From: a virus
Taxonomy: Duplodnaviria > Caudoviricetes
Direction: 5' to 3' (one strand)
IMG/VR virus record: IMGVR_UViG_3300049320_000001
Location: 17,655 to 81,654 of that record
DNA: 64,000 nucleotides
Part shown: in pieces, positions 16,024-43,009 of the stretch
How positions within the stretch are numbered: position 1 is the first letter of the stretch
Layout of the letters: each line of letters begins with the position of its first letter
Notes under the pieces: generated by a model
What the model was told of the DNA's origin: nothing
Databases searched by the model: none
The model's input: only the letters and a program-made list of their open reading frames with translations
Program-made: the position numbers and the translations under genes

Positions 16024-16293
16024 ATGGCTATGTCCAAAGTGAGTGAAGCCCTTGCCAGGCCTACTCGTACCGGTACGCAGTTCGGTGCCGCCGAGATCCT
16101 GGTGCAGTTCGTGGAGGCCTTTCTCAGGGACCTCAACGAGGCTCAGCACGTGGCCCTGGTAGGTGTACTGACCCTGGTGGTTGGCACGATCCAGGTCCTC
16201 ATCGAGAACAAGACCGGCGTGGGCTTCCTGCGCCAGGTGCCTCCTACTGAGGTGCCTGTCATCGATCCCCCCGCAGACGGGCCGGAGGACTGA
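16024..16293 (+). CDS. Small membrane protein upstream of endolysin (holin-like)
   Basis: Hydrophobic segment VALVGVLTLVVGTIQVLI; adjacent to the lysin. Confidence 0.5.
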   Translation: MAMSKVSEALARPTRTGTQFGAAEILVQFVEAFLRDLNEAQHVALVGVLTLVVGTIQVLIENKTGVGFLRQVPPTEVPVIDPPADGPED

Positions 16294-16988
16294 TGGCAAC
16301 CTCGTACAACGGTTGGCCTGCCTCAGCAGACCCGGCAGCCATCAACATCAACCGCAACGCGGTTGCACGTGGAACGACGGTCAGGTTCCCGGCTGGCCTC
16401 AAGAACGGCGATGTGGCCTTCGTCCTGGGGTACGTGGCCGGGGAACTCCACAAGCGAGTCGAGCGTGCCGGGACGGGGGTGTGGGGCTACGCCTACCGGC
16501 AGAACCGCAACGCCCGCAACCTGTCCTGTCATGCCTCGGGGACTGCCTTCGACTGGAACGCCCCTCGGCACCCCAACGGCAAGTCGGGCACCTTCACGTC
16601 CAGGCAGAAGGCCACCATCCACGCGATCCTCAACGAGGTCGAGCACGCGGTGAAGTGGGGCGGGGACTTCACCGGCACCAAGGACGAGATGCACTTCGAG
16701 ATCTGCGTCGGTGCTCGGGACCTGGCTGCCATCGCCAAGCGGCTACGGGCTCGGCTTGCTGCCCAGCGCCCTGTCCCGGCCTGGTGGACCACCAACCTGC
16801 GTCGTGGGATGACCAACCGCTCGGACATCCGCATCGTGCGGCAGAAGTTGCACCTCCCACTGGACGGGAGCGCCAACGATGACGACTTCGACGCCGAACT
16901 CGATGGTTACGTCCGTCGCTTCCAGCAGAGGTCTGGACTGGAGCCTGACGGAGTCGTGGGCAAACTGACAGCGAAGGTGTTGGGCTAA
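16293..16988 (+). CDS. Endolysin: M15-family Zn peptidase plus peptidoglycan-binding domain
   Basis: SYNGWPAS start, WGYAYR..LSCHASGTAFD..WGGDF..DEMHFE catalytic motifs; C-terminal VRRFQQRSGLEPDGVVG PG-binding motif. Confidence 0.88.
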   Translation: MATSYNGWPASADPAAININRNAVARGTTVRFPAGLKNGDVAFVLGYVAGELHKRVERAGTGVWGYAYRQNRNARNLSCHASGTAFDWNAPRHPNGKSGTFTSRQKATIHAILNEVEHAVKWGGDFTGTKDEMHFEICVGARDLAAIAKRLRARLAAQRPVPAWWTTNLRRGMTNRSDIRIVRQKLHLPLDGSANDDDFDAELDGYVRRFQQRSGLEPDGVVGKLTAKVLG

Positions 16989-17654: not shown

Positions 17655-17928
17655 CGGCACCACATCCCTCACATTGGCAAACCCAAGGTGACCACCACCT
17701 AAGGTCTCCCGTGGACATCCACTGGACATACGTGGCTGTCATGGGGTGGTCTTTCACTGCATCTGTCGCGCAGTTCTGACAGAGCGCTATCTCCTCGGCC
17801 ATGGGTACGGCCTGGGAGAAGTCGATGCTCTGGGCATTACACCTCAAGCACCGCCGTGAGACAGGGGGTAGGTGTCTCTCGGCATCCTTGACCCACCACC
17901 TTTCGGGCGTCTCATCTGTGACGTCCAC
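17647..17928 (-). CDS. Cys-rich (CxxC x3) hypothetical protein
   Basis: CLRC, CQNC, CQCEGC motifs. Confidence 0.55.
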   Translation of the reverse strand: MDVTDETPERWWVKDAERHLPPVSRRCLRCNAQSIDFSQAVPMAEEIALCQNCATDAVKDHPMTATYVQWMSTGDLRWWSPWVCQCEGCGADV

Positions 17929-20124: not shown

Positions 20125-21315
20125 TCAGACCCCGATGGTCTGGCGCTCGCGCTGGTTGGCTTCCTCTGCTGCGAAGAAGCGCTCCAGTTCGGCGTCAGTC
20201 GGCTCCCTGGTCCCCCAGTGGACGTTGGCCTTGGCCAAGATCTCGTCCTCATCGATCTGGAGGTGGAGCATCTGCTGGATCATGTGATCCTCGTGCGGGA
20301 GGTGTCCGGCGACGAGACCGAACTGCTCCATCGTGCGATCGATCCTGGACACGGAGTGGACGCAGAACGCGGCCTCGCCCTTGCCAGGATCGGTGCGGCT
20401 GACGACTCGCCGGATGTTGCCCGACGAACCCTTGTGGATGCGGTACAGCCGCCCCTTGGAGCCCACCACGTGGAAGTAGTTGAACCTTGCGTACTCCTCA
20501 CGCTGCTCCTCGGTGAGCAGGCCCAGGAGAGTCCCCAGAGCCCGCTCGGAGGCCGACTGCGTTGCCAGCCGCTCTGCCTCGACCCGCTGGAAGAGAGCCA
20601 GGGCTTCCGCCTGCTGGCGGGCCTGCCTCTCCTCGGGAGTCTCGACAGGCCGTGCGTAGGTCAGTCCTCTACGAGCGACTTCCCGCTGAACATCGGCACC
20701 GTTGTACGCCTGGACGCCGTAGCCCACCCAGTTCCGCTCCCAGATCGTCTGGTTGGCAATGTAGGCGTTGGTGGAGATGGTGTACTGCTCGTTCCATCTA
20801 CTCCAGGTGTAGGTATCGGTCATCAGCGTCACCGTGTTCGTCATGGCCGCTGTGGGCAGCCCGTTGATGTTGAAGATGTACTGCCCAGCGGTGTTGGTGG
20901 TACTGGACGTCATGGTGATCTCGAAGGGATGGTCTCGGACATGTGTGTAGAACCTGGTGACCCCGCCTGTTCCTTCGTGACGCACCAGCCCCAGCGTGTC
21001 GTAGCCCCTGTTCACCGTGACGGTCTGGTTGACCGGCCTGGAGTACGTGGACACTGGGGGATGACGGATGATCTCCGTCATCTTCCGGTACCGCTCTGCC
21101 CACTGTCGCCGCCCGGTGTCCCAGGGCTGCTTGGCGGGAGAGTGAGCCACCAGGACCGTGTCCTCACCCTTGGGCCGGGTGCGGAGGACCCTGTTGCATC
21201 GAGCGCACGATCCGTATCCACCGCTGTAGTGCTGCTTGCCGTTCCGCAGCGGGTAGTAGTGGATGGCCTTGTAGATCGTGGCTGGGGCTTCACCAGCCCC
21301 CTGGCACTTAGCCAC
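20125..21315 (-). CDS. Partner of the GG-ending protein; C-terminal domain with conserved-looking C-x-H (possible E2-like fold)
   Basis: GTG start overlaps the GGT GGC TAA end of the upstream gene; Thr/Trp-rich middle, coiled coil, then LLTEEQ..YFHVVGSKGRLYRI..FCVH..D..IQQML.LQIDEDE.L..AN. Confidence 0.6.
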   Translation of the reverse strand: MAKCQGAGEAPATIYKAIHYYPLRNGKQHYSGGYGSCARCNRVLRTRPKGEDTVLVAHSPAKQPWDTGRRQWAERYRKMTEIIRHPPVSTYSRPVNQTVTVNRGYDTLGLVRHEGTGGVTRFYTHVRDHPFEITMTSSTTNTAGQYIFNINGLPTAAMTNTVTLMTDTYTWSRWNEQYTISTNAYIANQTIWERNWVGYGVQAYNGADVQREVARRGLTYARPVETPEERQARQQAEALALFQRVEAERLATQSASERALGTLLGLLTEEQREEYARFNYFHVVGSKGRLYRIHKGSSGNIRRVVSRTDPGKGEAAFCVHSVSRIDRTMEQFGLVAGHLPHEDHMIQQMLHLQIDEDEILAKANVHWGTREPTDAELERFFAAEEANQRERQTIGV

Positions 21316-21598
21316 CGACCAACTGCGGGGCCATGATGATCTTCTCGGCGGTCGGGTCGAAGGTGTCGATCCGCTCGCCCTTCTCGCCCTGCGCGTTGAC
21401 CTTGTAGGCCAGGTAGCGCTTCTCCTTGAGGGCCTCGAACTGCTTCTTGGCAGCCGCGACCTCGTCGGGGTTGTCCTTGCTCCACATGAATCGAGAGTCA
21501 CCCGATCCGTCGAGCACGTACAGGCCGTGCTGACCCTGGGCCAGGACCTCGTTCTCGGCCTGGCTGGCGGTCATCTTCTCGCTTGCGGTGGTGGTCAT
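21308..21598 (-). CDS. Ubiquitin-like (beta-grasp pattern) protein ending in Gly-Gly
   Basis: Pattern beta-beta-alpha-beta-beta-beta then PQLVGG*; AAGG RBS. Confidence 0.6.
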   Translation of the reverse strand: MTTTASEKMTASQAENEVLAQGQHGLYVLDGSGDSRFMWSKDNPDEVAAAKKQFEALKEKRYLAYKVNAQGEKGERIDTFDPTAEKIIMAPQLVGG

Positions 21599-22803: not shown

Positions 22804-24393
22804 CTAGACGGTCTTCTCGGGGACCTGGATCCGAGCCCAGTCCTCGTCCCCACCACGGTTGATGGTGGCGATGGACAGGGTGTCGCTCGTGGCCGAGGTG
22901 ACCAGGCCCTTCATGGCGGTGTGCAGCGAGTCCGGGATGTGGCCCTCGCTGGCACCGGTCATCAGGTCGTACTGCTTGCGGATGGACGTCGCCGCGTGGA
23001 CGAAGTCCTCCGTCCGCAGCACGTCCGGTGCCCCCTTCGTGCGGGAGATCGAGTAGCGGATCGTACGCCCGATGGCCTCCGCGATGAAGGCGGGGAGGAA
23101 GCCCTCCATCGCCTCACCGATGGCCTGGTAGTCGAGCGCCGTGTCCAACTTCTCGTCGGGCACGATGGCGTGGATCATCTTCTCCACGCCGGGGCTGTCG
23201 AGCGCCGAGATCTCGATGTAGGCGTCCGTACGACCCGAGCGGAGCATCCCCTTGTGGATGTTGTCCGCGTGGTTGGTCGTCATCACGCAGATCAACTGCG
23301 TGTTCTTCTTCTGGATGCCGTCGAACATCTCCAGCAACTGCGACACCTTGTCCGGGTCACCGCTCTGCGCGACCGTGTCGATGTCCTCGTAGAAGACGAC
23401 AGCGGGCTGGTAGAGCAGGGCGGTCTGCATGACCTCGCCCAGGTTGTCCTTGCCGGGGCGGCACTGGATGAAGGTCCAGCCGTTGTCCACGGCAACCTGC
23501 GCCGTGAGCATCGCCGCCAGGGACTTGCCGGTGCCGTAGGGACCAGCGAGGAGAGCGGACCGCTTGAGGGACTGCCCGTTCGCCACCTGGACCTCCGGGA
23601 ACCGGATGACGTCCCAGATGTTGGCCTCCAACTCCGTCTGGACGTGCTCGGAGTAGACGACCTTGGAGGGGTCCACCGTGAAGGGGTCGATGAACGTGGG
23701 CTGGGTGGCCCCCGTGATCGCTCGACCCTTGTAGATGGAGAACTCCTTCAGTTCGGCCTCGATCAACTTGAAGAGGCCCTGCACCTTGTTGCTGTGCTTG
23801 CGGTAGGTCTCGACGTGGAGCCGGAACAGGAGACCCAACTCGGCATCCTGCATCTGGTCCGTCGTGAGGGTGGCCTCCAGCGGCGGGAACTCGATGACAC
23901 CCCAGGGGACCTGGATCTGCTGGTCCACACCGCTGTCGATGGTGATCATGCGGGGCGGGTTCTTCCCGAAGAGGGAGAACGTCGCCTGCGCGATCCCCGT
24001 CGTGCCGAAGTTGCGCTTGAGCGCCGACTGGAGCGCCGCAGCACCATCCCAGGGCCGGTACTTGAAGGTCTGGGTGAAGGTCGTGACCTCCTCCTTCTGG
24101 GCGATGCGCTTCTCCCAGAACTTGAGCACCTCCCGGTCCTTGCCCTCGTACTGGGTCGGCACGACCCACTTGCCACCGTCGTCGTAGACGACGTCGTCGT
24201 CTCCGACCTGCTTGCCGCCGAGTTCTGCGAGGAGAGCCAGGAGGCGCTTCTCACCGATGCGGTCGGACTTGTCCTTGTCAGTGGGCACTTGGAACCTTTC
24301 GGGGTTGGTACCTACCTCAATGACGGGATTGTCACTGAGGAAGCGAATGACGCTCTTCTCGAACGCCTTGCTGCTGAACGTGACGCTGGCCAC
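22804..24393 (-). CDS. AAA+ ATPase (classical AAA clade, single module)
   Basis: Walker A GPYGTGKS, Walker B VVFYEDID, second region of homology MTTNH..MLRSGRTD. Confidence 0.9.
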   Translation of the reverse strand: MASVTFSSKAFEKSVIRFLSDNPVIEVGTNPERFQVPTDKDKSDRIGEKRLLALLAELGGKQVGDDDVVYDDGGKWVVPTQYEGKDREVLKFWEKRIAQKEEVTTFTQTFKYRPWDGAAALQSALKRNFGTTGIAQATFSLFGKNPPRMITIDSGVDQQIQVPWGVIEFPPLEATLTTDQMQDAELGLLFRLHVETYRKHSNKVQGLFKLIEAELKEFSIYKGRAITGATQPTFIDPFTVDPSKVVYSEHVQTELEANIWDVIRFPEVQVANGQSLKRSALLAGPYGTGKSLAAMLTAQVAVDNGWTFIQCRPGKDNLGEVMQTALLYQPAVVFYEDIDTVAQSGDPDKVSQLLEMFDGIQKKNTQLICVMTTNHADNIHKGMLRSGRTDAYIEISALDSPGVEKMIHAIVPDEKLDTALDYQAIGEAMEGFLPAFIAEAIGRTIRYSISRTKGAPDVLRTEDFVHAATSIRKQYDLMTGASEGHIPDSLHTAMKGLVTSATSDTLSIATINRGGDEDWARIQVPEKTV

Positions 24394-29270: not shown

Positions 29271-29780
29271 TTAGATGAAGCCCAAGATGCGGGCACACGT
29301 CCAGGGTTGCCATCCCCTGTCCAGGAAGCCCCGGTAGGCGACCTGGTCTTGCATCCACGGCGGTGCCTGGTCAGCCGTCAGGCTGGGGTCGCCTCCGTAG
29401 GTGAGCCAGAAGGACCTGTCCATCTGGTAGGCCCCTCGGTAGGTGCCGGAGCCAGAGACTGCTCGGTATCCCTTGGCTCCTCCCTCGCACTTGCGGAGTC
29501 GCTGCACTCGGTCTGAGGCAGCCCAAGACACCGCTCCAACAGGTGCGGGTCGTACAGGTGCCACTCGCTCGGTTCTGGGAGCAGAGTGACGGCTTCGGCT
29601 TGCCTTCTTCTGAGTTGTTCCCCTGCCATCGAGGATGGGGGTGGGAACAGGGTCAGCAGCAGGCTGCGATACAACCTGCGCGCTAGTCGCCGTGACCTGC
29701 TGTGGCACATCACGACCCTCCGTCCTCAGGCCCAGGATCACGAGCATGACCATGAGTCCAAGCGAAAGAGTTCTCTTCAT
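29271..29780 (-). CDS. Secreted resuscitation-promoting factor (Rpf)-like transglycosylase
   Basis: Signal peptide MKRTLSLGLMVMLVILG; Rpf motifs LRKCEGG, YRGAYQM..FW..GG, QDQVA, GWQPWTC. Confidence 0.75.
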   Translation of the reverse strand: MKRTLSLGLMVMLVILGLRTEGRDVPQQVTATSAQVVSQPAADPVPTPILDGRGTTQKKASRSRHSAPRTERVAPVRPAPVGAVSWAASDRVQRLRKCEGGAKGYRAVSGSGTYRGAYQMDRSFWLTYGGDPSLTADQAPPWMQDQVAYRGFLDRGWQPWTCARILGFI

Positions 29781-30051
29781 CGAGTAGTTCCTTTGTTCGG
29801 CGGATCGCGTCCGCAAAGCCTCGACCGTAGTCTCGGCTCTTCGTGGCGTGGTCTTCCGGGTCCGGCAATGGAACCACCAGACGCTTGTTCTCCTCCACTG
29901 CATCTGCGATCACCGTTGCGAGATGAACTCGGTGATCGTCAGCGAAGGCAACAGTGTGACCGCACCCGCAAATACCCCAAGTCCCTTGCTCACTTTGGTG
30001 TTGATGCTTGTCGAGCACTTCCAGGATGAGGTTGTCCAGCGGTGCGTTCAC
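29710..30051 (-). CDS. Hypothetical protein (H..C.C..H..H metal motif)
   Basis: GGAGG RBS before GTG. Confidence 0.5.
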   Translation of the reverse strand: MNAPLDNLILEVLDKHQHQSEQGTWGICGCGHTVAFADDHRVHLATVIADAVEENKRLVVPLPDPEDHATKSRDYGRGFADAIRRTKELLDEENSFAWTHGHARDPGPEDGGS

Positions 30052-31612: not shown

Positions 31613-31763
31613 CGGCCCCCTGCTGCGAGTGGTCGTTCTGCACCGGGGATGGCCAGGCGTCGGGTCCTTCGTAGTGACACTCCAGCCCGTCTGGACACGG
31701 ACAAGAGGGGTCACCGTGCGGGCAGTAGATGACGGTCCGCGAAGGCGACTTCTCGCCCGTCAT
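31602..31763 (-). CDS. Small KSPS...NDHS family protein (Cys-rich core)
   Basis: MTGEKSPSRT..CPH..CPC..CH..QNDHSQQGADDG. Confidence 0.55.
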   Translation of the reverse strand: MTGEKSPSRTVIYCPHGDPSCPCPDGLECHYEGPDAWPSPVQNDHSQQGADDG

Positions 31764-32062
31764 CGACTCAGTGCCTGGGTGATGAGCCCGACAATGAAAG
31801 CGGCCACGGCAACCATCGCCATGGCCGTTACGACGTAGTCCAGGAAGACGACGCCATCGATGATCTTCAGTTGGTAGGTGGCAACTGCTCCGAAGGACAG
31901 CCAGTGAGACAGGCAGTACGGGCAACCAATGAGTTGCCCGAACCACTTGCTCTTGAGCATGACCTTCTTGCGGAGCGGCTCAGTGACCTTGGTACGGGCG
32001 ATGGTGAAGGCCACCGACGCCACCGAAGCGGCAAGGATGAGGAACTGGGTGTACCTCAGCAC
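31760..32062 (-). CDS. DUF1360-like membrane protein
   Basis: TEPLRK..LIGCPYCLSHW motif flanked by TM helices. Confidence 0.65.
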   Translation of the reverse strand: MLRYTQFLILAASVASVAFTIARTKVTEPLRKKVMLKSKWFGQLIGCPYCLSHWLSFGAVATYQLKIIDGVVFLDYVVTAMAMVAVAAFIVGLITQALSR

Positions 32063-32490
32063 ACGCAACCCCCACGGGTGCTCTTGACCCTGCCCATGGA
32101 GAGGCCGCGCAGGTCGTGCCACTCCTCGGTGCGCTCGTCGTGGGCGGACTCCACCTCGTGGTAGAAGTTCCACATGGCGTCGGAGTCCTCCTCCGAGCGG
32201 TTCTCGTCCCACCACGCCATGAACTCGGCCATGGAGGGCATGGACGGCCTGTCGTCCATCGGGTCGTACTCGGCGTCCGGATGCCACGCCGGGAGCGCCT
32301 TCGCCTCCTCGACCGTCTCCTCCTCCGGGTCAGGGAGGACGGCGTCCATGTCGTTCAGGAGGTCATCGATGTTGGTGAGGCAGCAGGTTGCCCCCTCCAC
32401 GACCTCCTGGGATCGACTGGTGTCGGCCTCAGAAGTCGTCGTCTCCTGCTCCGAGTCCTGCGAACGCTGCTGCTTGGTCTTCTGAACCAT
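32056..32490 (-). CDS. Pup-like N-terminal region fused to an acidic/Trp-rich extension
   Basis: MVQKTKQQRSQDSEQETTTSEAD..IDDLLNDMDAVL resembles Pup MAQEQTKR..TDDLLDEIDDVL; GAGGAG RBS. Confidence 0.55.
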   Translation of the reverse strand: MVQKTKQQRSQDSEQETTTSEADTSRSQEVVEGATCCLTNIDDLLNDMDAVLPDPEEETVEEAKALPAWHPDAEYDPMDDRPSMPSMAEFMAWWDENRSEEDSDAMWNFYHEVESAHDERTEEWHDLRGLSMGRVKSTRGGCVC

Positions 32491-32794
32491 GACTCTCCTC
32501 AGTGGTGTCTCCGTTGGAATCGGTGATGGTCCCGTCGCTCCAGAACTTCCTCCAGAAGCGGACGGGGGTGGTGGTGCGCGTGAAGGACAGACCGGTGAGG
32601 TCGTCCACGAGTGTGATCTCCCAAGGCTCGCCAACCTCGGGCTCGGTGATGCGGTCGTACGCGATCCACTTGCCGTCACGGCGTGCCCCCCTGGCTCGAT
32701 CACCAGGGGAACGGAGCACCTTCTTGACCACGCAGTTCGTGTGGTGGTTCGACAGTTCCGTGAACACGATCAACAGATCGACCGTCGCGGGCAT
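32429..32794 (-). CDS. Hypothetical protein
   Basis: AAGGAG RBS. Confidence 0.5.
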   Translation of the reverse strand: MPATVDLLIVFTELSNHHTNCVVKKVLRSPGDRARGARRDGKWIAYDRITEPEVGEPWEITLVDDLTGLSFTRTTTPVRFWRKFWSDGTITDSNGDTTEESHGSEDQAAAFAGLGAGDDDF

Positions 32795-34971: not shown

Positions 34972-35078
34972 TGTGGGGCTCCTTTCAGTGGACAGTCTTT
35001 CTGCCTCACGTGTAAGGAGCATACCATCAAACACAGCGAAAGGCCAGTTCATCCCTCAAGAATGAACTGGCCTTTGCT

Positions 35079-42926: not shown

Positions 42927-43008
42927 GGTCGAGTGGTGGAACTGGTAGACACACAGCACTCAAACTGCTGCGCCGCAAGGCGTGAGGGTTCGACTCCCTC
43001 CTCGACCA
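42927..43008 (+). tRNA. tRNA-Leu (anticodon CAA), CCA not encoded
   Basis: Acceptor GGTCGAG/CTCGACC+A, D-loop GGAACTGGTAGAC, anticodon arm CAGCA-CTCAAAC-TGCTG, long variable arm, GGTTCGACTCC T-arm. Confidence 0.92.
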
Positions 43009-43009
43009 C

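Follow-up and report, generated by a model that had tools for sequence, protein, structure and literature searches.

A Pup-like protein with a cysteine tail, translationally coupled to a DUF1360 membrane protein, in a phage from a soil metagenome

The Pup-proteasome pathway, which mycobacteria need for persistence, relies on Pup, a ubiquitin-like protein of prokaryotes (PF05639; Rv2111c in Mycobacterium tuberculosis), which is recognised by Mpa/ARC only after its enzymatic ligation to a substrate, one Pup being bound per Mpa hexamer. Phages are known to inhibit AAA+ proteases of their hosts with small proteins, as lambda CIII does with FtsH and T4 PinA with Lon. Here we describe P0001, a small protein resembling the first 50 or so residues of Pup and encoded on the minus strand at 32056-32490 of a 64,000-nucleotide stretch of phage DNA (hereafter the window; positions 17,655 to 81,654 of the IMG/VR record IMGVR_UViG_3300049320_000001), and we compare its locus, in which the gene is translationally coupled to one for a membrane protein of the DUF1360 family, with the Pup system and with related gene modules in other phages. 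The source record comprises 81.6 kb with 61% G+C and was obtained from a soil metagenome.

Three features of Pup bear on this comparison. A helix made up of Pup residues 21-51 binds the coiled coil of Mpa antiparallel, and the disordered N-terminus ahead of it threads into the pore (PMC8755798). The residues perturbed by Mpa binding include L39, E42, I43, D44, D45, and L47 (PMC3769308). Linear fusions in which Pup precedes a cargo need no ligation for recruitment to Mpa-20S and degradation by it (PMC8755798). The literature that we searched describes no virus-encoded protein exploiting the Pup receptor, no phage mimic of Pup, and no module like the one reported below, in which an ARC-type ATPase, a short protein ending in Cys-x-Cys, and a DUF1360 protein are encoded together.

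A Pup-like front half in a small phage protein family

Translation of the minus strand of 32056-32490 yields 144 residues and a stop codon. It bears out the open reading frame given in a preliminary description of this DNA, which had left the strand unstated: the protein starts MVQKTKQQRSQDSEQETTTSE, with MVQKTKQ at its head, carries IDDLLNDMDAVL at residues 41-52, and continues for 92 further, acidic and Trp-rich residues to a C-terminal RGGCVC. Asp and Glu together number 36 against 12 Lys and Arg, Trp occurs five times, and the isoelectric point is 4.2. The Pfam family Pup was the top match of P0001 (E 0.008, 17.5 bits) and of two of its relatives (E 1.6e-4 and 2.7e-4, 22-23 bits), and it was matched at E<=1 by 10 of the 11 members of the aligned family, no other Pfam family being matched by more than two. 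For a comparison between alignments, we assembled 20 aligned sequences that were annotated as Pup and matched PF05639; these had been retrieved from a protein database with a Pup sequence as bait, and only such retrieved sequences entered the later comparisons. Aligned to these true Pups with hhalign, the family reached probabilities of 58-70%, and in the 70% alignment (E 4e-5) its columns 1-46 were paired with Pup 1-50. The corresponding scores of 25-28.5 compare with 8.4 +/- 2.0 (maximum 17.1) when the columns of the N-terminal part were shuffled (300 shuffles) and with 16.2 when they were reversed, and shuffled sequences scored on a Pup hidden Markov model (HMM) agreed with the column shuffles. 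The resemblance to Pup exceeds what chance composition gives.

In the family as in Pup, an M-A/V-Q-x-x-T-K start opens a tail of about 20-24 residues, predicted to be disordered in the family, and an acidic amphipathic helix follows that spans about 27-30 residues, spaces its hydrophobic positions in the same way, and has its Ile-Asp core equally far from the N-terminus. When the sequences are anchored on this invariant Ile-Asp, the hydrophobic positions coincide with L32, L39/L40, I43, and V46/L47 of Pup, and the anchoring Ile stands at residue 38-42 counted from Met1 in the family versus 42-43 in Pup, so that the register of the family helix falls on the Pup residues that are perturbed when Mpa is bound. 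The likeness stops near Pup residue 50-52, both in the hhalign alignment of the full family and in the Pfam alignments of the two closest relatives. There the helix of P0001 breaks at Pro53 and PDPEEE comes next, with nothing resembling the DFVRAYV of the second helix of Pup (Pup 52-59), which wraps PafA and Dop together with the first; two weaker alignments extend a few residues further, still without a match to the DFVRAYV motif. The GGQ/GGE end of Pup is also missing from P0001, which ends GGCVC as its family ends in C-x-C, and ligation by PafA is therefore impossible, as the preliminary description had already concluded. Unlike Pup, which in its free form is wholly disordered and about 60-70 aa long, the family members measure 105-144 aa and contain a region predicted with high confidence to be folded.

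The architecture of P0001 was modelled with AlphaFold2 (AF2) on the family alignment. Residues 1-24 (32419-32490) form a polar tail rich in Lys, Gln, Thr, and Glu that is predicted to be disordered (predicted local distance difference test, pLDDT, below 50 for residues 1-23), and on the evidence of its conservation and of hhalign, which aligns the family tail from Pup residue 1 on, it is the likely counterpart of the threading segment of Pup. The acidic amphipathic helix, assigned to residues 25-52 (32335-32418) and spanning residues 25-51 at moderate confidence in the model, matches in register the Mpa-binding helix of Pup (Pup 21-51); its landmarks are Cys36-Cys37, Leu38, Ile41-Asp42, and Leu44-Leu45. 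A Pro/Glu-rich linker, PDPEEETVE, of variable length in the family alignment (residues 53-61; 32308-32334), leads to a conserved, acidic, Trp-rich domain of two predicted helices (residues 62-130; 32101-32307; pLDDT 83-97) in which LPxWHPDAEYDP and RxExW..RGL stand out, and this is followed by a flexible tail ending G-C-V-C (residues 131-144; 32059-32100; pLDDT 53-59), whose C142 and C144 are conserved in at least 90% of the members. In this model, the layout of P0001 is that of a linear Pup-substrate fusion, the orientation being the one that permits a C-terminal cargo (PMC8755798). No recognisable fold emerged for residues 62-130 when the AF2 model was searched against the PDB (Foldseek, and a wide VIA-align search with a best Z of 4.3) and against BFVD. 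When the PDB was searched by sequence, neither the family profile nor residues 1-62 matched anything at E<=10; PHROGs contained no family for P0001, and the ESM Atlas gave no usable match.

A profile search of 1.84 billion representative proteins returned 11 matches at E<1e-3, of which ten, counting the protein of the window, were full-length (105-138 aa) and one was a fragment of 51 aa, and at that threshold it returned no fused or longer form of the family. The aligned family, to which one further relative was added from the first search, has 11 members of 105-144 aa. Where genomic context was available, the members came from phage-like metagenome contigs of 54-62% G+C with genes for DnaB, primase, and a DnaE-type polymerase. 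Conserved in the family are an M-x-Q-x-T-K start, the helix pattern S..VVE.A.CCL..ID.LL, LPxWHPDAE.DP, R.E.W...RGL(S/T)Y, and a terminal C-x-C; the CC pair and the terminal Cys-x-Cys are nearly invariant, and one member, P0015, is without the CC pair and retains the helix. Searched with tblastn, 50,697 phage records gave no match to four family members or to the DUF1360 partner. Scans of viral contigs and of genome contigs for the family pattern found none, and a metagenome scan retrieved nothing beyond a duplicate of one known member. GMA6, Cantare, FlyingTortilla, and ChisanaKitsune, the four nearest among cultured phages, carry neither the family nor a DUF1360 gene, and their genomes, searched in six frames, gave no Pup match at E<=1.

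The frame is taken as coding because of its high G+C content at third codon positions (0.91 overall and 0.80 over codons 1-30) and because the ten relatives, 27-55% identical to P0001, differ from it by in-frame indels. In the gene call of the source record, the start is an internal GTG, which gives a protein of 114 aa, excludes the region 32400-32490 of the window, and would cut away the 30-residue Pup-like tail. Judging from the sequence, the ATG at 32488-32490 is preferred over this GTG as the true start because it is preceded at a distance of 4 nt by a Shine-Dalgarno sequence, GAGGAG (32495-32500, minus strand), that is kept in the relative L002, because the N-terminal peptide M-A/V-Q-Q/K-T-K is conserved across the family with a 3-nt indel, and because the C-terminal tail of the upstream gene that overlaps this region is unconserved. 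That upstream gene (32429-32794, minus strand) encodes 121 aa, and the Pup-like gene starts within it, the overlap amounting to its last 62 nt; it is conserved in L002 only and is therefore probably not part of the module.

The DUF1360 partner and related modules in other phages

Directly downstream of the Pup-like gene lies a gene for a membrane protein of 100 aa (31760-32062, minus strand) with three hydrophobic segments and, in the alignment, an invariant CPYC.SHWL. It matches DUF1360 (PF07098) at 28.2 bits against a cut-off of 21, and its GTG start overlaps the stop codon of the Pup-like gene in GTGCTGA, so that the two are translationally coupled. By the positive-inside rule, the CPYC would lie near the cytoplasmic end of the second hydrophobic segment. 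Wherever a family locus extends far enough, a DUF1360/CPYC gene is found downstream, immediately 3' of the family gene in L002 and L007/L008 and with one gene between in L009/L010/L016. The intervening gene of these last loci encodes a Cys/Trp/Tyr-rich protein of 139 aa (10372-10791 in L009). We considered whether the terminal Cys of the family might be retained merely through the overlap with the partner's start codon and rejected this, since L002 and L009, which have no such overlap, keep the Cys-x-Cys.

Scanning viral contigs with the DUF1360 alignment yielded 36 loci (L017-L052). In seven of them, spanning 26-61% G+C (L017, L018, L019, L021, L022, and L043/L044; six of the short proteins were translated), the open reading frame upstream of DUF1360 encodes only 62-71 aa, with a polar Lys/Gln-rich tail, a central helix such as SLIDEIDELL, or IDEIDELL in the 69-aa protein of L022, and a C-x-C end. 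All seven have a gene for an ARC/Mpa-type ATPase directly before the short Cys-x-Cys gene. For the five of these ATPases that were scanned, TIGR03689 was the best model (275-329 bits, E 1e-82 to 5e-98), with alignments that start from the coiled-coil region and scores that lie under the model's equivalog cut-off of 505 bits; the ARC-type ATPases of L019 and L044 were confirmed by tblastn. These phage enzymes are 466-527 aa long, with a short N-terminal coiled coil and without the GQYL-type end that docks on the proteasome. The DUF1360 proteins of the short-form loci mostly carry an extra, charged C-terminal helix.

The Pup-like gene occupies the slot of the short Cys-x-Cys genes: it stands directly upstream of a DUF1360/CPYC gene, is coupled to it, and encodes a protein with the same plan of polar tail, helix, and Cys-x-Cys end. 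Unlike P0001, the short proteins have no inserted domain and no Cys-Cys pair and are always preceded by an ARC-type gene; P0001, in turn, is twice as long, has no neighbouring ARC gene, and is much more like real Pup than they are. An ARC-type gene is absent from all loci of the Pup-like family that were scanned. The 81.6-kb genome itself has no ARC-type ATPase, its sole match to the ARC model being one of 18.6 bits on a Cdc48/PAN-like ATPase, and neither a homologue of PafA or Dop nor a proteasome gene was found in the phage.

A proposed ligase-free adaptor and its alternatives

We favour, at somewhat less than an even chance, a reading in which P0001 acts as a Pup-like adaptor that needs no ligase: it would dock on host ARC/Mpa, and its cysteines would hook it to the DUF1360 membrane partner. 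Residues 1-52 would in this case copy Pup 1-51, the half that binds the N-terminal coiled coil of Mpa/ARC and threads into the pore, and an acidic folded domain of about 80 aa, followed by the Cys-x-Cys tail, would stand in place of the GGQ/GGE end and of the half of Pup that PafA and Dop hold. The helix would dock on ARC/Mpa of an actinobacterial host, the host enzyme being proposed as the target because no ARC-type ATPase is encoded by the phage itself. The CC (residues 36-37) and CxC (142-144) would then couple P0001 to the CPYC of the co-translated DUF1360 protein through a shared metal or a disulfide, and the unfoldase would thereby be brought to, or made to act on, a membrane complex. 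As a by-product, P0001 might compete with pupylated host substrates for the single Pup site of each ARC ring. Actinobacterial hosts carry an ARC of their own, and the most economical explanation of the arrangement is that, with host ARC/Mpa present, a motor of the phage's own was unneeded and a docking peptide converged on, or was derived from, host Pup. A non-enzymatic hook made of the Cys-x-Cys tail is plausible because the thioredoxin-like partners of other DUF1360 genes suggest thiol or metal chemistry at the CPYC.

Several observations weigh against this adaptor. The preliminary description had called P0001 a mimic of Pup, and of this the N-terminal motif, the length of the disordered tail, and the acidic amphipathic helix held up, as did the profile comparison in so far as Pup was the top Pfam match and hhalign supported it; against the claim stand the size and folded C-terminal domain of the protein, the fact that every Pfam score (17.5-23 bits) falls under the curated Pup cut-off of 27 bits, and an NCBIfam scan in which no Pup model (TIGR03687) appeared at E<=10. 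One reversed sequence scored as well as its forward version on an HMM built from Pups of Mycobacteriales only, a warning that part of the signal may be a generic acidic amphipathic pattern. The hhalign comparison also gives two registers one heptad apart, the second being that of the preliminary description. The near-invariant Cys-Cys within the helix has no counterpart in Pup, and the helix might for that reason pack against the folded domain of P0001 itself or coordinate a metal. As for the short Cys-x-Cys proteins, the six translated ones score no more than 5 bits on the family HMM, their sequences being very short and divergent, and none has a Pfam Pup match, so that the equivalence of the long and short forms is suggested by position and architecture. 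Finally, DUF1360 genes of phages most often have as their partner a thioredoxin-fold protein with WCxxC, found upstream in at least 16, probably 21, of the 36 loci, which points to thiol chemistry rather than proteolysis. Taken over its two main types of upstream partner, DUF1360 suggests a membrane relay for thiols or metals. The thioredoxin-fold partners themselves have an N-terminal hydrophobic anchor and often end in ...LKKNExPDYEIW.

These last points feed the alternative that P0001 is a cytoplasmic thiol-redox or metal-binding partner of the DUF1360 protein, with the cysteines as its core, the Pup likeness as a by-product, and no unfoldase involved. We regard this as a serious alternative, though a rather unlikely one. 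It would account for the near invariance of CC and CxC beside a partner with an invariant CPYC and for the frequency of thioredoxin-fold neighbours, and it sits well with Pup scores that are all below threshold and with a reversed-sequence control that is partly positive; it leaves unexplained why tail motif, tail length, and helix register should all match Pup, why an ARC-type ATPase constantly precedes the short Cys-x-Cys genes, and why P0015, without the CC, keeps the helix. The likeness to Pup fits equally well with a pure decoy, which could not be conjugated and would compete for the Pup site of host Mpa/ARC (perhaps also of PafA/Dop), thereby blocking proteasomal turnover, with a C-terminal domain that served only to resist unfolding. 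With a single Pup site per Mpa hexamer, a modest amount of competitor could matter, and the phage inhibitors of AAA+ proteases, lambda CIII and T4 PinA, offer a precedent: P0001 shares with them its small size and phage origin, and it would likewise engage an AAA+ machine of the host by mimicking an element of its substrates. Unlike P0001, those two have no conserved membrane partner or cysteine motifs, and they bear no sequence or structural relation to it. The preliminary description had proposed a decoy that jams or redirects the host system, and the front half of P0001 agrees with this, but the proposal passed over the Cys-Cys and Cys-x-Cys motifs and the coupled DUF1360/CPYC partner, for which a pure decoy offers no role even though the cysteines are conserved and the membrane partner is obligatory. 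Nor is the PafA/Dop-binding helix resembled: the likeness ends at about Pup residue 50 and only the part that binds Mpa/ARC is copied, so that a decoy aimed at PafA and Dop, as had also been suggested, is improbable. In other phages, the counterpart small Cys-x-Cys protein is encoded beside an ARC-type ATPase of the phage itself. An inhibitor of a host enzyme would hardly account for this arrangement, which speaks for an unfoldase that is used constructively and not simply blocked; we accordingly judge a pure decoy unlikely.

The 20S proteasome is absent from some bacteria that carry ARC, and this bears on a further alternative, in which the Pup-like front is a built-in degron or self-timer that makes an early phage protein, or an inhibitor of DUF1360, a direct substrate of the Mpa-proteasome, its removal setting the time of a later event. 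Since a host with ARC need not possess a 20S proteasome, since no GQYL-type tail is present on the ATPases encoded in the short-form modules, and since no proteasome gene was found in the phage, we think this quite improbable, even with the same architecture as the linear Pup fusions that are degraded without ligation (PMC8755798). That P0001 might be a truly conjugatable Pup variant with another chemistry of C-terminal attachment is scarcely credible: the front-half likeness to Pup is all that speaks for it, and the lack of a GGQ/GGE end, the length of 144 aa with a folded domain, and the lack of a PafA/Dop homologue in the phage all speak against it.

If P0001 is an adaptor that docks on ARC/Mpa, the two kinds of module might be parts of a ligase-free counterpart of pupylation in phages, a generalisation that we offer as a speculative and rather doubtful one. 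A Pup-like docking peptide, with a cysteine hook in place of the isopeptide bond, would couple a membrane target to an unfoldase of the ARC/Mpa type; phages of hosts without ARC would bring the motor with them, and the present actinophage lineage would have dropped it, mimicking host Pup and hijacking host Mpa/ARC instead. Should P0001 bind ARC/Mpa, the actinobacterial Pup-proteasome pathway would for the first time have a phage factor directed at it, and nature would have provided a Pup degron that is genetically encoded. P0001 would then serve, too, as a handle on a wider, undescribed phage module of ARC-type unfoldase, Cys-tailed peptide, and DUF1360 membrane protein. These predictions are directly testable with existing assays of Mpa and the proteasome.

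Host and other features of the window

The host is probably an actinobacterium, given that the phage encodes an Rpf domain (PF06737) scoring above the Pfam cut-off at 34.9 bits and that its DnaE polymerase, lysin, and AAA ATPase have their nearest relatives, at 31-43% identity, in phages of Gordonia, Mycobacterium, and Brevibacterium. The Rpf-type transglycosylase domain is C-terminal in a stand-alone protein of 210 aa (29271-29903, minus strand), encoded in the early arm and far from the lysis genes. Searching genome contigs with this Rpf protein for a host found none. No cutinase-type LysB was found in the genome, and the host may for this reason lack mycolic acids, even though the phage has relatives among Gordonia and Mycobacterium phages. 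The endolysin (16293-16988, plus strand) combines Peptidase_M15_4 with PG_binding_1.

The preliminary description had also joined the Pup-like gene, an AAA+ ATPase, and a pair of ubiquitin-like proteins of the same arm into a toolkit for manipulating host proteolysis. The ATPase (22804-24393, minus strand; 529 aa) is encoded 7.4 kb downstream of the Pup-like gene and belongs to the Cdc48/PAN/FtsH clade; it is a possible accessory and is not of the ARC type. Its relatives at 39-43% identity are annotated as AAA-ATPase in Gordonia phages (Keelan and Ronaldo) and in Mycobacteroides abscessus prophages (McProf), and the phage and prophage records with this ATPase gave no match to four members of the Pup-like family. 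In two contigs, relatives of the ATPase do lie 1.2 kb downstream of a module of ARC, CxC, and DUF1360 genes (6443-8002 in L017 and 5522-7087 in L022). The link of the ATPase to a toolkit is weak, and a loose association between it and the module may exist. The ATPase was set aside as a candidate Pup receptor, being Cdc48/PAN-like and scoring only 18.6-18.9 bits on the ARC model; by eye, its N-terminal 215 residues, a region without an assignment, contain no long coiled coil. In Keelan, the AAA-ATPase gene is located between those for the tape measure and the tail chaperones.

For the ubiquitin-like part of the toolkit, nothing was found that links the protein ending in LVGG to the Pup-like gene. 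This 96-aa protein (21308-21598, minus strand) ends PQLVGG, and its last codons overlap the GTG start of a gene for a 396-aa protein (20125-21315, minus strand). An AF2 model built on 26 homologues (pLDDT 76) shows the element order of a beta-grasp, and its top Foldseek matches are all SUMO- or ubiquitin-like, with a probability of 0.94 and a weak E of 0.02. Its 45 homologues are all metagenome or phage proteins without a name. Upstream of the minus-strand early arm, a terminator-like hairpin with a 17-bp stem lies at 35039-35075 (minus strand), and the single tRNA gene of the window, for tRNA-Leu(CAA), is at 42927-43009 (plus strand).

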